From: Candidatus Altiarchaeales archaeon
Lineage (GTDB): Archaea > Altiarchaeota > Altiarchaeia > IMC4 > QMZM01
Direction of reading: 5' to 3'
NCBI GenBank assembly: GCA_023252215.1
Contig: JAHEXG010000004.1
Location: forward strand, 1 to 59,420
Length of the DNA: 59,420 nt
Within the stretch, counting starts at the first letter, position 1; each line of letters starts with the position of its first letter. Of the stretch, positions 30,091 through 35,365 are shown piece after piece. Made by a program: the position numbers and the translations under genes. The notes under the pieces are model-generated. The model searched no databases, was not told the DNA's origin, and saw only the letters and a program-made list of their open reading frames with translations.

Positions 30091-30567
30091 ATGGATGCAG
30101 AAAAAAACGAGGAAGAAAAAAACGACGAAAAGATGAAGATCAAACTCATCAAAAACGGCGTCGTAATAGATCACATAGCAAGCGGCCGCGCACTAGAAGT
30201 CCTGCACATCCTCGGAATAGGCGAAGACTACGAAGACGAGGTCTCCTTGGCCATGAACATATACAGCAAAAGCATGGGCAAAAAAGACATAGTCAAAGTC
30301 GAAAACCGGGAAATAAAGACCTACGAGATAAACAAGATAGCAGTAATAGCGCCCAAGGCCACGATCAACAGGATACGGGACTGCAGGGTCGTAAAAAAGG
30401 AAAAAGTAGTCCTGCCAAACGAGATAATCGGCATAGTGAAATGCTCAAACCCCCAGTGCGTGTCGAACAAATGCCGCGAGCCTGTCAAGTCGTCGTTCAT
30501 AGTAGTGCAGAGGGAACCGTTGATAATAAGCTGCAAATACTGCGAAAGAGAAGCAAAAGGTCTTTAA
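30091..30567 (+). CDS. pyrI: Aspartate carbamoyltransferase regulatory subunit
   Basis: IKNGVVIDHI, KDIVKVE, CSNPQCVSN...CKYCE. Confidence 0.95.
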   Translation: MDAEKNEEEKNDEKMKIKLIKNGVVIDHIASGRALEVLHILGIGEDYEDEVSLAMNIYSKSMGKKDIVKVENREIKTYEINKIAVIAPKATINRIRDCRVVKKEKVVLPNEIIGIVKCSNPQCVSNKCREPVKSSFIVVQREPLIISCKYCEREAKGL

Positions 30568-32039
30568 ATCATCTCTTTGACAGCCTGCTGCGTAAGTTTC
30601 TTGGCAGACTCGACTTTCTCTATTCTCTTCTTTAGACCGGCTTCTTTTGCCTCTGCATCGTTTCTTAATTCCTTGACCATCCTCCGAACCTCCGCAGGAG
30701 CCGTGCCGCCAAGGCTCTTATTCCGGGAAGCGGCTTTCCCCGGGTCAAGTATTTCTGACAACGCATCAGACGAAGCAGTTACCCCGGATTTTTTAAGGAA
30801 CGCTATTACCTCGGAGGTATCTCTCAAATCTTTCTTCCTGGAAGAAAGCTCTTTGACCACTCCCCCGGTTATCTCATAGGCCTTGCGGAAAGCAATCCCC
30901 TTCTCTTTGACCAAGTAATTGGCAAGCTCGGTCGCAGTCGAAAAATCAGCATACACCGACTCCGACATGCGTGCCCTGTTGATCTTTGCATCCGAGAGGC
31001 CTGCGTTCAGCACCTGGAGCGAGCCTTTGACGACATACAAAGCATCCCAGAGAAGCTCCCGGTCCTCCTGCATATCCCGGTTGTAGCCGCCGGGCAGTCC
31101 TTTCATGAGAGTCAAGACCTGCATGAGCGCTCCATAGACGCGGCCGGTCTTACCCCGCACAAGTTCGGCCATGTCAGGGTTCTTCTTCTGAGGCATAATA
31201 GAACTGCCAGTGGCAAAGGAATCAGAGAACTCAATGAAGCCGAATTCACAGCTGCTCCACAAAACAAACTCCTCCGCAAGCTTCGAAAGATCGCACATGA
31301 GGATCGAGAGAGCGGAAAGCGCTTCCAGCACGTGGTCCCGGGAGCTTACGGCATCGAGCGCATGCACATGGACTCCGTCGAAGCCGAGCAATTTAGCCGT
31401 GTACTCCCGGTCTATGGGAAAGGAAGTGCCTGACAAAGCCCCTGCGCCAAGAGGGCATGTGTTGTCGTGGGCATACGCGCCCGACAACCGGTCAAAGTCG
31501 CGAAGCAGCATGCTGGCATAAGAACTCGCCCAGAAACCGAACGTTATAGGCTGCGCATGCTGCATATGGGTATAACCGGGCATGATCGCATCGGCATTTT
31601 GGTCAGCGAGGCAAAGCAATGACTCCTCCAGTTCCAGGACGCAGCCCATGACTTCCAAAAGCTCTTTTCTCAGGTGCAACTTTGTATCGGTAAGCACTTG
31701 ATCATTCCTAGAACGGGCAGTATGCATCCTGCCGCCGTATTCTATTCCGCATTTGCTTATTACGTAATTTTCTATGTTTATGTGAACGTCCTCAAAGGCC
31801 TCATCCAGTTCAAATTTACCGGCCGAATACTCTTTTTTGACATCTCCAAGGGCCTTTAAAATCTTGCCCGCATCCCCCGCGGGGATAATACCCTGCTTAG
31901 CCAGCATCAGGACATGAGCCTCGCTGCCCCAGACATCCTCGAAGAACATCTCTTTATCAGTGTCAAGAGAACTCGAAAACCCTAAAAGAACAGGCGAGAT
32001 ACCGCCTTTAAACCTGCCGCGTAGCATCTTGGAAGCCAT
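30564..32039 (-). CDS. argH: Argininosuccinate lyase
   Basis: EDVH, HTARSRNDQV, PGYTHMQHAQP, GSSIMPQKKNPD. Confidence 0.96.
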   Translation of the reverse strand: MASKMLRGRFKGGISPVLLGFSSSLDTDKEMFFEDVWGSEAHVLMLAKQGIIPAGDAGKILKALGDVKKEYSAGKFELDEAFEDVHINIENYVISKCGIEYGGRMHTARSRNDQVLTDTKLHLRKELLEVMGCVLELEESLLCLADQNADAIMPGYTHMQHAQPITFGFWASSYASMLLRDFDRLSGAYAHDNTCPLGAGALSGTSFPIDREYTAKLLGFDGVHVHALDAVSSRDHVLEALSALSILMCDLSKLAEEFVLWSSCEFGFIEFSDSFATGSSIMPQKKNPDMAELVRGKTGRVYGALMQVLTLMKGLPGGYNRDMQEDRELLWDALYVVKGSLQVLNAGLSDAKINRARMSESVYADFSTATELANYLVKEKGIAFRKAYEITGGVVKELSSRKKDLRDTSEVIAFLKKSGVTASSDALSEILDPGKAASRNKSLGGTAPAEVRRMVKELRNDAEAKEAGLKKRIEKVESAKKLTQQAVKEMI

Positions 32040-32171
32040 CTTAGCATAGATTATTTGAACAGACCGCTAAATAAAGAAAATACCGAAAAAAATATAAACA
32101 ATTTAAAGCAAAAAAAAGCCCGGGAGAATCTTTTAAGTCGAAATACCATAATAATAAACCTTTAACACCAC

Positions 32172-32330
32172 GCCGAGGTGGCCGGCCGCAGCCGGACATG
32201 TCGGCATTCAAGTTCATTACATATGCCGAGGTGGCCGGCCGCAGCCGGACATGTCGGCATTCAAGTTCATTACATATGCCGAGGTGGCCGGCCGCAGCCG
32301 GACATGTCGGCATTCAAGTTCATTACATAT
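32172..32330 (+). repeat. Three perfect 53-bp tandem repeats abutting the 5' end of tRNA-Ser
   Basis: Unit GCCGAGGTGGCCGGCCGCAGCCGGACATGTCGGCATTCAAGTTCATTACATAT at 32172, 32225 and 32278. The first 11 nt of the unit equal the first 11 nt of the tRNA at 32331. Confidence 0.97.
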
Positions 32331-32418
32331 GCCGAGGTGGCAGAGCCTGGTTTAACGCGCAAGCCTGGAAAGCTTGTTTCTCGCAAGGGAAGCTTGAGTT
32401 CAAATCTCAACCTCGGCG
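32331..32418 (+). tRNA. tRNA-Ser(GGA)
   Basis: Acceptor GCCGAGG/CCTCGGC plus G discriminator; anticodon arm CAAGC-CTGGAAA-GCTTG; long variable arm; T arm TTGAG-TTCAAAT-CTCAA. Confidence 0.95.
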
Positions 32419-32580
32419 CACCTTTTCTTTCTAAAGAAAGAAAACGTGCACGAAAAGAAAGGGGAATTTGCTCGCCTGAAGCTCGCAAATTCAACTGCTA
32501 ACCTAATGATCAGGACTGGCTAAATTTTGGAGCATGCAAGCTTTGCCTTCACAAGAACTGGGGGCTTCGCACCTCCGCGG
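32419..32580. repeat. Multi-hairpin palindromic intergenic element
   Basis: TTTTCTTTCT-AA-AGAAAGAAAA (32423-32444), GAATTTGC...GCAAATTC (32464-32492), GGGGCTTCGCACCTCC (about 32562-32576). Confidence 0.5.
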
Positions 32581-32596: not shown

Positions 32597-35365
32597 TTAC
32601 TTGATGTATATCCCCGGTTTTTGGGGTATGGCGAATCTTGCCTTGTTTTCCGGGTCTTTTGTCGGGGTTTTCTGCAGGTCTATTTCTGCGTTGAATTCTT
32701 TTTCCAGGAATTTTTGGGCGCCTTTCAGGGTGTCGTATTCTTCGTCCAGTGTCAGCATCAGTTCGGGTATTTCGTCTCTGCGGTATTTCTGCATTATCTG
32801 GCTTATCTCTTTGCCGTAGGGCTTCATCTCCGGGTCGCTCATTATCTGTTTCATCGGCGTGCAGGATCTTAGCAGTGCGAATGCTTTTCTCTTCCATTCC
32901 GGCGCCAGATACATGTGTATCCGCTCTGGTTTTATCTTTGATATTTCCATGATGTGCTGTATGTCTTCCATTAAATTCTTTATCATGTTTTCTTTGGCGT
33001 CTACTATCGGATCGATCTTCTTTGGGTCTGAGATCGGGTACTCTGCTACTGAGATGTAGTCTTTGTGTCCCATTGCTTCCCATAGTTCTTCGCATGTGCA
33101 GGGGGTGAAAGGAGCCATCAGGCGGACCCATTGGTCGCAGAATTCTTTTACGGTCTTTGTTCTGGGTTCGCATCTTCTTGTGTACCACATCAGGTCGTTT
33201 ATCAGGTCGAAGAATGCGGATTGAATGGCTTTTCTGGTCTGGAATGCTTCCAGTGCCGTGTTTGTTCTTTCCGTTGCTTCCTGTATTCTGCTGATAAGCC
33301 AGCGGTCTATGTCCCTTTCGGGTATGTCGTTTTTGAGCTCCGATGCCGCATATGCCTGGTCATAGAATTGCTTTAGTTTACGTCCTGTGTTCTTGACGAG
33401 GTTCTCTCTCCAGTCGAAGTCCTGCCAGGGCTCGGCGTTGCTCATCAAGAACAGGCGGACTGCGTCGCTTCCGTTGTCCCGCATGGCGTCGCTTAGTAGT
33501 ACGACGTTTCCTTTGGAGGAGGACATCTTGTTTCCTTCCAGCAGGCCCATTCCGAAGACCACTATGCCCTTGGGCCATTTGTCTTTCGGGAATACCGCGG
33601 TGTGGTGGAACAACATAAACGACAGGTGGTTTCCGACGAGGTCTTTTGCCGAGAGCCTCCAGTCCAGCGGGTACCAGTAGAGGAATTCTGCGCGGATATT
33701 TTCTATCTCCGCTCTTGCGACTCCGCTCTTCTTGGATAATTCCTCAGATTTTCCTTTTCCAAGCAGGACGTAGTCGTAGAACTCCGGCGTGAGTTTGGCA
33801 GCGTCTATCTTCTTTACATGCTTTGATATTGTGTAGAACGCCATGTATATCGTGGAATCGCTCAAGGGTTCGATGAGCCATTTACTGTCGTACGGGAACC
33901 TAGTGCCAAGCCCTACGCGGCGGGTGCAGGCCCAGTCTTGCAGCCAGTCTATGAAGTAAGAGAAGTTCTGTTTCAGTTCCGATGGAACGATCTCCATCTG
34001 TTTGAGGCATTCTTGCGTCTTCTCTTTCCATTCAGTGTTCCCGTATTCAAGGAACCACTGGTCTTTTAGTATTTTTATGTAGCAGCGTGTGCCGCATCTG
34101 CAGACAACGGGGCTTTCTGAGAATTCGTAGAATATGTCTGCGTCGCCTGCGCCGGTTAGGTCGGCTGCCACTTTCTCCCTGGCAGTGCGAACCGCAAGCC
34201 CGCCGTATCCCTTTATCCATTTGCTCATATGGCCTTTGCCGTGCTCTTCTTTGTATAGCTGCGCCGTTGCTTCTTCGAGCTTGGGGTCTTTCTGGTCCGA
34301 TATGCCCATCTCCCGGATCATCTTCTCGGCTGGAGCGTCTCTTCCCTCTCCTATGATGACTATGGGTTTTAGATCGCTCTTCAGATCCTTTAGCGCGATG
34401 TAGTCGTATGGCGCATGCGCTGGAACTGACATCACTATGCCTGTCGCATAGTCGGGGTTCACGAATACTGCGGGCAGTATGGGTATTTCTTTTTTTAGCA
34501 GGGGGTCTGTGCATGTTTTTCCGATTAGTTCGCTCCCTTTTATTTCGCCGATGATCTCTACTTTTTTGTTGAGGTATTTTAGTTTTTCTGCTGCTTCTTT
34601 GCTTATTACCCATGTTTCATTGTCTACTTTTGCTTTGACGTAGTTTACTTCGGGGTTGACCCACATGTTGGTCAGGCCGAATATGGTCTCAGCTCGCAGG
34701 GTCGCAGCCGGCAGTATGAGGTCGCCCATCCTGAATTTTATTATCGTGAAATCATTTACCTCGGCTTTGTCTCCCTGTAGGAGGTCGTGGTCTCCTACCG
34801 GGTTGTTGCAGCTTGGGCAGTATCGGACAGGGTGTTCTCCCATCTTTATCAGGTTCTGCTCGTGCAGGTGCGCGTACTGCCATTCAACGTATTTGCTGTA
34901 CTGCGGCGTGATGCTTAGGAATTCGCGTGTCCAGTCGATGGAGTATCCCATGTCCACCATGTTCTCATGGTATTCGTTTGAGAAGTATTTTACGATGGTT
35001 TCCGGGTTTGTGAAGTTCGCAAGGGTTTCGGGCGGCACCTTATAGAGGCCGCCGTATATCTTCAGCGTCTTTTCGTCTTTTTTCTTTATACGCTCGGCTA
35101 TTCCAAGGACCGGGCTCCCGGTGACGTGCCAGGCCATTGGGAACAAGACATTGTATCCCTGCATCCTCTTGTATCTGGCGATGACGTCGGGAACCGTATA
35201 TGTCCGGCCGTGGCCGACGTGCATGCTTCCGGAGGGATAGGGGAATGCGACGGTCAGGTAGAATTTCTTTTTCTCTGGATCGGGCGAGGCCTCGAAGACT
35301 TTGGCGTCCGCCCATTTCTTTATCCATTTCTTTTCTATTTCCCTGACATCGTATTCTTTGACCAT
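32597..35365 (-). CDS. leuS: Leucine--tRNA ligase (archaeal type)
   Basis: [42 protein letters not shown]. Confidence 0.97.

Follow-up and report, generated by a model that had tools for sequence, protein, structure and literature searches.

In Escherichia coli, the tRNA-linked repeats (RtT RNA, Rfam RF00391) are tandem units in tRNA operons that copy the tRNA end. Plant mitochondrial t-elements and the mascRNA module of MALAT1 are tRNA-like processing elements. The REP/BIME elements and miniature inverted-repeat transposable elements (MITEs) of prokaryotes are small, non-coding, imperfect palindromes found in arrays, and archaeal integrative elements of the SSV and pNOB8 types leave attachment-site (att) duplications at tRNA genes. 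Here, we describe an array of three identical 53-bp units immediately upstream of tRNA-Ser(GGA) in a 59,420-nt stretch of DNA (hereafter the window; contig JAHEXG010000004.1, positions 1 to 59,420) from a Candidatus Altiarchaeales archaeon, the genome of which (G000, assembly GCA_023252215.1) is a metagenome bin of 1.55 Mb in 90 contigs; G001, G002 and G003 denote its congeners and other G numbers denote relatives within the phylum. The array belongs to a phylum-wide and apparently undescribed family of palindromic repeats that copy the starts of tRNA genes. A full-text literature search, which returned mostly listings and abstracts, yielded no description of such units in pre-tRNA leaders.

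The units are a variant of tRNA-linked repeats, t-elements and small palindromic repeats, not a categorically new system. Like RtT RNA, they are tandem and non-coding, lie in a tRNA transcription unit, copy the terminal bases of the neighbouring tRNA and vary in copy number. However, RtT copies the 3′ end and lies behind the tRNA, whereas the archaeal units copy the 5′ end and lie in the leader, the copy is closed into a hairpin by an inverted copy of itself, and the host is an archaeal phylum. The units had no match to RF00391 at the gathering score or at E ≤ 10.

An excerpt of PMC4326828 describes t-elements, or tRNA-like elements, of Haloferax volcanii that are cut by RNase P and tRNase Z. 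The likeness to these lies in acceptor-stem-like helices within longer transcripts, which in t-elements act, according to that excerpt, as RNase P/tRNase Z processing signals. A 7-bp acceptor-like helix starting at the predicted cleavage site is present in the units, in that tRNA nt 1–7(10) and their complement form the outer stem, commonly with one mismatch. The units lack the 12-bp acceptor/T helix and the T-loop and have instead ~16 bp with a 2-nt bulge and a variable loop. As the excerpt presents them, t-elements are single tRNA shapes next to non-tRNA genes, whereas the units are tandem 16-bp hairpins placed before the tRNA they imitate, and their strand statistics disfavour a selected sense RNA. 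If the hairpins were processed, archaea would have 't-elements' of natural origin that could be employed as modules for RNA processing.

As with REP/BIME elements and MITEs, the units are palindromic, clustered, patchy among relatives and nearly identical between copies in one genome. They differ in occupying two loci only in G000, rather than many dispersed sites alongside an autonomous insertion sequence (IS), with no partner element found, and in lying strictly at tRNA gene ends, in phase with +1. Furthermore, their outer arms copy the local target rather than a fixed element sequence, and there is no association with Y1/RAYT-type transposases. As to the terminal inverted repeats and short target duplication of a MITE, the insert is bounded by direct repeats of the tRNA start and has unoccupied counterparts, but its inverted repeat takes in the duplicated target and nothing pairs with the linker end as an inverted partner. 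The att duplications of integrative elements likewise leave a tRNA segment directly repeated on both sides of an insert with the tRNA intact, but the insert here is 42 nt without a gene, the repeat is 7–13 nt, and the same module recurs at many tRNAs.

Anatomy of the array upstream of tRNA-Ser(GGA)

The three units lie head to tail on the plus strand at 32172..32224, 32225..32277 and 32278..32330, and the linker of the third abuts the +1 position of an intact tRNA-Ser(GGA) gene (32331..32418, plus strand). Tandem Repeats Finder reported 32172–32341 as a repeat of period 53 with 3.2 copies, 100% matches and a score of 340, and all three units were matched by R1, a covariance model of the family introduced below. 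In each unit, nt 1–11 equal nt 1–11 of the tRNA (GCCGAGGTGGC), nt 1–34 form a hairpin and nt 35–53 are an A/T-rich linker (ATTCAAGTTCATTACATAT), leaving an insert of 42 nt between direct repeats of the tRNA start. A single unit was predicted to fold as (((((.(((.(((((....))))).))).))))) followed by a 19-nt tail, with an energy of −24.7 kcal/mol (z = −3.80; equally stable folds in 0 of 200 shuffles). This anatomy agrees with an initial annotation, made from the letters of the window by a model, which had described three identical 53-bp units opening with the first 11 nt of the tRNA and consisting of a 34-nt hairpin and a 19-nt linker.

The tRNA gene was called by ARAGORN (32331–32419) and by Rfam RF00005 (50 bits), and has the acceptor GCCGAGG/CCTCGGC and discriminator G at 32418; CCA is not encoded. 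Nothing but 32331–32418 was called as a tRNA, and the units had no tRNA match even at E ≤ 10. Nothing else reached Rfam gathering scores, and the matches at E ≤ 10 were weak microRNA-type hairpins far below threshold. On viewing folds and sequences by eye, bulge-helix-bulge splice motifs, k-turns, and C/D or H/ACA guide features were dropped as descriptions of the units. The statement that the array is not a CRISPR also stands: the 53-bp units are identical over their whole length, diverged arrays elsewhere are homologous in every part, and no search for Cas genes was made.

The copy number was examined in Logan contigs from two DNA sequencing runs, all of which end at the repeat, with none spanning the array. 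The unit-to-unit junction was present in both runs: record 3 of X1 spans 32206–32250, and X2 has an 83-nt record, which is the length (53 + 30) expected when a 53-nt repeat closes into a cyclic unitig at k = 31. Depth of the repeat k-mers was ~2–4 times that of the flanks, some of these k-mers also occurring at a second locus. Given the junction in two runs and the k-mer depth, and no spanning contig, at least two units are present and three are compatible with the data. The concern that the array might be an artefact with one copy or none is thereby answered, with at least two copies shown. That the tandem copies arose by short-read mis-assembly within the bin, as its 90 contigs and the contigs stopping at the repeat might suggest, is scarcely credible, given the junction in both runs, the excess depth, the arrays of 2–4 units in many other genomes (in which diverged members cannot be collapsed or inflated), and an array-bearing genome that is a single contig (G026).

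An A/T-rich candidate TATA element (CTTTTAAG; 32130..32137, plus strand) lies ~35–42 nt 5′ of unit 1; the initial annotation had noted TTTTAAG at 32131–32137, which is seen in the sequence. This box aligns with ATTAAAA in the orthologous pre-tRNA flank of G002, and a like box (CTTTAAAG) was seen by eye at a similar place in the upstream sequence of G003; the distance from box to +1 differs among these relatives. From its place ahead of the array and its conservation in congeners, we infer that this box has a promoter role and that transcription would start before unit 1 and read through. It is therefore likely that the array forms a structured 5′ leader of the transcript, which RNase P would remove by cutting at the tRNA +1. 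G000 encodes a full-length RNase P RNA (G000:C26:14316–14604; 73 bits, below the 84-bit Rfam threshold). Promoters within the individual linkers were rejected by eye, as no A/T box stands at about −26 of the tRNA and that stretch is GC-rich hairpin.

A family of units at tRNA gene starts

Units of the same plan were collected from 25 tRNA-Ser loci and aligned, giving a curated set of 37 on which the pair statistics and model R1 are based. They share a ~10-bp stem whose 5′ strand is tRNA nt 1–10, a 2-nt bulge, a core helix (consensus GCGAC...GUCGC; CCGGC-CGCA-GCCGG in the genus of the window), a 3–11-nt loop, and a TTCA/TTCG-rich linker of 15–25 nt. The direct copy of the tRNA start is 7–13 nt long, and units run head to tail in phase with the tRNA +1. 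Pairing was present in 85% of cells over the 37 units, compared to 30–44% when the partners were slid, and 10 of 15 stem pairs showed change on both sides. The covariation score was 0.292, relative to 0.148 ± 0.012 for shuffles, and was reached by 0 of 500.

Among the first 14 tRNA-Ser loci fetched from relatives, 6 had units. Across the 49 genomes that represent the order, the pattern GCNGRGG-N30-60-GCNGRGGTGGCRGAG matched 24 times, in 19 genomes, compared to 1 match for a control, and R1 found units in 24 of those 49 genomes. For the phylum, 27 of 61 genomes had R1 matches at E ≤ 1e-4. These carriers extend to a second order (family f9, 4/8); there was no match in G003 (97% complete), genus g6 (0/5) or family f8 (0/4). 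Given carriers with close relatives that lack a match, the units appear to be dispensable. The covariance model and the simple pattern permit a census of the family by anyone; R1 was trained on Ser units, and many intron-bearing tRNAs go undetected. When a related pattern, GCCGAGG-N30-60-GCCGAGGTGGCRGAG, was run on genome contigs at large, 118 of 120 loci among the matches listed had no tRNA, at a median G+C of 0.71. These were mostly chance matches in high-GC bacterial coding DNA, and the useful archaeal loci among the matches listed were L117 and L147.

Carriers were mostly tRNA-Ser genes. A further 20 regions with R1 matches had no known adjoining tRNA-Ser, and on inspection their matches proved to stand directly 5′ of intron-bearing tRNA-Ser genes and also of other tRNAs. 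Units were located directly 5′ of tRNA-Met(CAU) in G002, G023 and G037, of tRNA-Cys in G010, G023, G024, G028 and G037 (and, with a different unit type, in G027), and of tRNA-Leu(GAG) in G045, one of the 20 regions, and in G037, from a separate locus set. The match on G037:C18 precedes a non-tRNA remnant, and all of the R1 matches inspected lay at tRNA genes or a tRNA remnant. Non-Ser units have the same core and open with the first bases of their own tRNA, and every carrier tRNA opens with a similar purine-rich string, GC[CTG]G[AG][AG]G. No such units were seen at the other tRNAs inspected in G000 or at 15 tRNA genes of G024. Specificity for serine through seryl-tRNA synthetase or the long variable arm was considered and is refuted by the units 5′ of Cys, Met and Leu tRNAs. 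An intron-bearing tRNA with anticodon CAU and a Ser-type acceptor (GCCGAGG/CCTCGGC) lies at G000:C28:24848–24985 and has no upstream unit; its homologues in G002, G023 and G037 carry units.

A whole-genome search of G000 revealed a near-identical fourth copy (1 mismatch in 43 nt) on contig C32, where tRNA-Ser(UGA) is preceded by three diverged units of 45, 53 and 51 nt. The middle one is identical to the window unit at 52 of 53 positions. Of 31 tRNA genes called by ARAGORN, only tRNA-Ser(GGA) and tRNA-Ser(UGA) had in-phase mimic hairpins, and unit motifs were absent from the rest of the 1.55-Mb assembly. Thus, hairpins of the kind that the initial annotation had envisaged at other tRNAs exist, each matching the 5′ end of its own tRNA, and the implied peculiarity of the arrangement to tRNA-Ser(GGA) is refuted by the UGA array and by units at other tRNAs across the phylum. 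Its remark that an array at the 5′ end is unusual was supported.

Both loci have empty counterparts among the congeners. The upstream flank of the UGA locus is conserved in G003, G001 and G000, followed by no units in G003 (in which the tRNA comes directly after the flank), two in G001 and three in G000, and the boundaries of the alignment gaps coincide with the direct repeat. At the GGA locus, units are absent from G001, G002 and G003. The stretch of 45 nt that precedes unit 1 in G000 is orthologous there to the 45 nt directly before the tRNA in G002 (31/45) and G001 (30/45), whereas the 45 nt directly before the G000 tRNA are not orthologous to those flanks (6/45 and 4/45). Since the ancestral flank lies before the array and not before the tRNA, the alignments indicate that the window array was inserted, in this lineage specifically, at the junction of the ancestral leader with +1. 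The array carries a UGA-type linker, which is consistent with an ectopic copy of the UGA locus that was subsequently amplified.

The unit arms bear signs of copying at the level of DNA. The 5′ arm equals the first 7 nt of the local tRNA in 34 of the 37 curated units, and the same holds for all 7 units at Ser genes whose acceptors differ (GCTGAGG, GCAGAGG, GCAGGGG), including cases in which pair 3 is lost as a result. Many 3′ arms resemble fossils of other tRNA types: CCTCAGC, the complement of a GCU-type start, stands beside GCCGAGG in many units, and a unit 5′ of tRNA-Cys in G037 has a 3′ arm complementary to a Leu-type start. By string comparison, the 3′ arm CCA-CCTCAGC fits the reverse complement of tRNA nt 1–10 better than the tRNA 3′ end, CCCAA-CCTCGGC, and an inverted copy of tRNA nt 1–10 describes the outer stem better than a copy of the acceptor 3′ strand does. 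Mirror (inverted) units 3′ of tRNA genes, ending in exact copies of the tRNA 3′ end, were found in G044, G030 and family f9. At L162 (G037:C64), a tRNA-Ser(GCU)-like gene combines a GCCGAGG start with a CCTCAGC end (C3–A70 mismatch) and a T-loop insert, and an intact tRNA-Ser(GCU) follows directly; the former looks like a recombination hybrid or pseudogene.

With this family, structured inserts in the leaders of archaeal pre-tRNAs emerge as a class that recurs across the phylum and is invisible to annotation pipelines. The family offers a clean natural system for asking how palindromes of this size move among paralogous tRNA genes, what amount of structured ballast in a leader RNase P tolerates, and whether the ends of archaeal tRNA genes are safe havens for tiny non-coding mobile DNA.

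Origin and possible function of the units

The explanation we favour, which in our judgement has an even chance of being correct, is that the units are a DNA-level, duplicative palindromic repeat family that resides in pre-tRNA leaders, is passively transcribed and is removed by RNase P. In favour of it are the second locus in the same genome, the occurrence of the family at several tRNA types, the conserved palindrome, the behaviour of the arms, the empty sites, the lack of a strand signature, the absence of units from G003, genus g6 and family f8, and the RNase P RNA of G000. A unit consists of a direct copy of the tRNA start, a core hairpin, an inverted copy of the tRNA start that closes the ~10-bp stem, and a leader-like linker. 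Spread would take place at the DNA level: units would multiply in tandem through duplication or slippage involving the short direct repeats, and would be copied ectopically, by gene conversion or some other insertion mechanism, among tRNA genes with alike 5′ ends. In G000, a unit of the tRNA-Ser(UGA) array would have been copied between the ancestral leader and +1 of tRNA-Ser(GGA) and then amplified to two or three identical copies. With the promoter upstream, the array would be read as a 5′ leader and RNase P would cut at the tRNA +1, and the hairpins would need no cellular function of their own.

Several observations weigh against this explanation. No enzyme or autonomous partner was found: PF01797 (Y1/RAYT-type transposase) is present in 21 of 61 genomes and absent from G000, and R1 accepted 0 of 46 core-pattern loci on viral contigs. 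The Y1 transposase was rejected as a mobiliser, since it was shared with unit carriers in 10 genomes compared to 9.3 expected, which is no association. The sense fold was the stabler one in all 8 units of genus g1, the window included, and no fewer than 4 of the 37 units have c(UNCG)g loops, c(UUCG)g and c(UACG)g among them. Stem covariation and a conserved TTCA/TTCG-rich linker would fit a selected RNA as well; covariation is not decisive either way, because template switching makes compensatory changes in palindromes without selection. Furthermore, the exact phase of the units with the tRNA +1 is most naturally explained by RNA-processing logic, we infer transcription of the array from the upstream box, and the census of the family is biased, being Ser-trained with intron-bearing tRNAs undetected. 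As a side observation, the copy number of IS200/IS605-type Y1 transposase genes differs sharply between congeners, with 17 matches in G001 vs none in G000.

If the units were functional, they would be co-transcribed acceptor-stem-like helices recognised by RNase P/tRNase Z, which might signal processing, help folding, regulate the maturation of the tRNA or act as decoys for readers of 5′ or acceptor ends. This proposal, which we hold only tentatively, would account for a strong, conserved and covarying hairpin, units always in phase with +1 with leader-like linkers between them, maintenance of the family across two orders, the c(UUCG)g and c(UACG)g loops, the promoter-like box conserved in congeners, the RNase P RNA of G000, and the sense fold being stabler throughout the genus of the window; t-elements, as presented in the excerpt of PMC4326828, are established archaeal substrates of both enzymes. 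However, over the 37 units G-U mismatches (26) and A-C mismatches (28) show no strand bias, and the antisense hairpin was the more stable in 26 units, the sense in 9 and neither in 2 (Wilcoxon p = 0.019), which together argues against selection on the sense RNA. Half of the units (18 of 36) have stem pair 3 open, as their 5′ arm keeps to the tRNA and not to its own partner; the base after the stem is mostly A or T rather than the G73 of tRNA-Ser; and the helix is ~16 bp with a 2-nt bulge and a variable 3–11-nt loop rather than a 12-bp acceptor/T stack, without a T-loop-like element. Many close relatives, and the other Ser isoacceptors of G000, have no units. In the equilibrium fold of the whole precursor, the 5′ strand of unit 1 pairs with the 3′ strand of the tRNA (−120.7 kcal/mol vs −107.7 kcal/mol for three hairpins plus the cloverleaf, a difference of 13), and identical units are therefore a potential folding cost, not a help. 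A protein-less, mobile minihelix that bears its own guide is rather unlikely. Here, the 3′ arm, a ~10-nt inverted tRNA start, would pair with the target and direct copying in phase with the tRNA +1 or with the complement of the 3′ end, and the duplicated target would become the other arm of the hairpin. Processing of the tRNA-like helix by RNase P/Z would keep the host tRNA functional, and tRNA gene ends would therefore be a safe haven for the element.

The initial annotation had headlined minihelices; its fallback was a scar left at the tRNA by an element aimed at tRNA 5′ ends and subsequently amplified. The fallback is nearer to the evidence, as the insertion is absent from three congeners, a 52/53 copy exists in the same genome and the family is phylum-wide, but a classical att scar is not favoured. 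Such a scar would be what is left of an integrase element at the tRNA 5′ end after deletion to 42 nt between att copies, with amplification of the remnant, and the direct repeats of the tRNA start that bound the insert would fit it, as would classical partial 3′ copies downstream of tRNA-Ser genes in G023, G032, G029 and G033. We nevertheless regard it as quite improbable: independent deletions cannot have produced one and the same 35–40-nt layout, conserved core and inverted tRNA start included, at dozens of tRNA genes from 27 genomes, the repeat is only 7–13 nt, there is neither an open reading frame beyond chance frames nor an element remnant between the repeats, and the 46 viral pattern loci held no unit. 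More improbable still is an operator array in the DNA, in which direct and inverted copies of the tRNA start would be half-sites for a dimeric DNA-binding transcription regulator. Strand-neutral symmetry and the position of the units between promoter box and +1, with the tRNA start itself as one half-site, would suit such a function. The nested palindrome, variable loop and variable spacing of the arms (15–25 nt) are unlike known operators, half-sites vary by tRNA type inside one genome, no candidate protein is apparent, and the mirror units 3′ of tRNAs would be left unexplained.

Neighbouring genes and other repeats

The array and its tRNA are flanked by genes whose names were read off the translations: argininosuccinate lyase (30564–32039, minus strand) and leucyl-tRNA synthetase (32597–35365, minus strand). 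With the former divergent, the array lies in a divergent intergenic region. Outside the units, a T-rich trailer hairpin element (CCTTTTCTTTCTAAAGAAAGAAAA...GAAAAGAAAGGGG) follows the tRNA at 32421..32464 (plus strand), and gave many partial matches in relatives over query positions 381–422. Elements of this T-rich hairpin type (CCCTTTTCTTT..AAAGAAAAGG, then TGTTTCATCCCCAAAAGAAA-like) stand 3′ of many tRNA genes of the phylum and also after 5′ tRNA fragments, as well as inside canonical tRNA introns (tRNA-Met of G037, tRNA-Cys of G024 and tRNA-Ser of G046); listed positions are L162, L180, L174 (introns), G000:C15, G000:C78, L246 and L257. The element behaves like a separate small repeat family or is probably the terminator region of the tRNA.

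A second style of 5′ duplication was observed at tRNA-Cys (G000:C15:11307–11380) and tRNA-Val GAC (G000:C78:3411–3485), of which the first 22–24 nt are copied, and in G024, where the first 33 nt of tRNA-Met and 19 nt of tRNA-Leu are copied (L246, L257). These copies lie ~113–126 nt upstream of the tRNA, each followed by the trailer element and then the leader. This duplication is longer and lies outside a hairpin, whereas that of the units is short and forms a hairpin arm.

Behind intact tRNA-Ser genes, at 60–200 nt, there are partial 3′ copies of tRNA-Ser at L150 (G023), L159 (G032), L021 (G029) and L164 (G033), several of them broken in the T-loop by hairpin inserts that open with CGC and end with GCG; judged by sequence, these copies are putative att-like footprints or remnants of T-loop introns. 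Runs of 4–6-bp hairpins ending in (G/A)CAT (e.g. GCCGACACAGTCGGCAT) lie 3′ of the tRNA-Cys of G000:C15 and the tRNA-Ser(GCU) of G000:C54, and the words GTCGGCAT/GGACAT are common to these runs and the window units. Finally, a conserved motif, TAGTCGGG...CCCTTGACGAG, occurs 60–120 nt 5′ of unit arrays in several genomes of family f7 (L160, L161, L164, L027) and may be a small RNA or a promoter-linked element.

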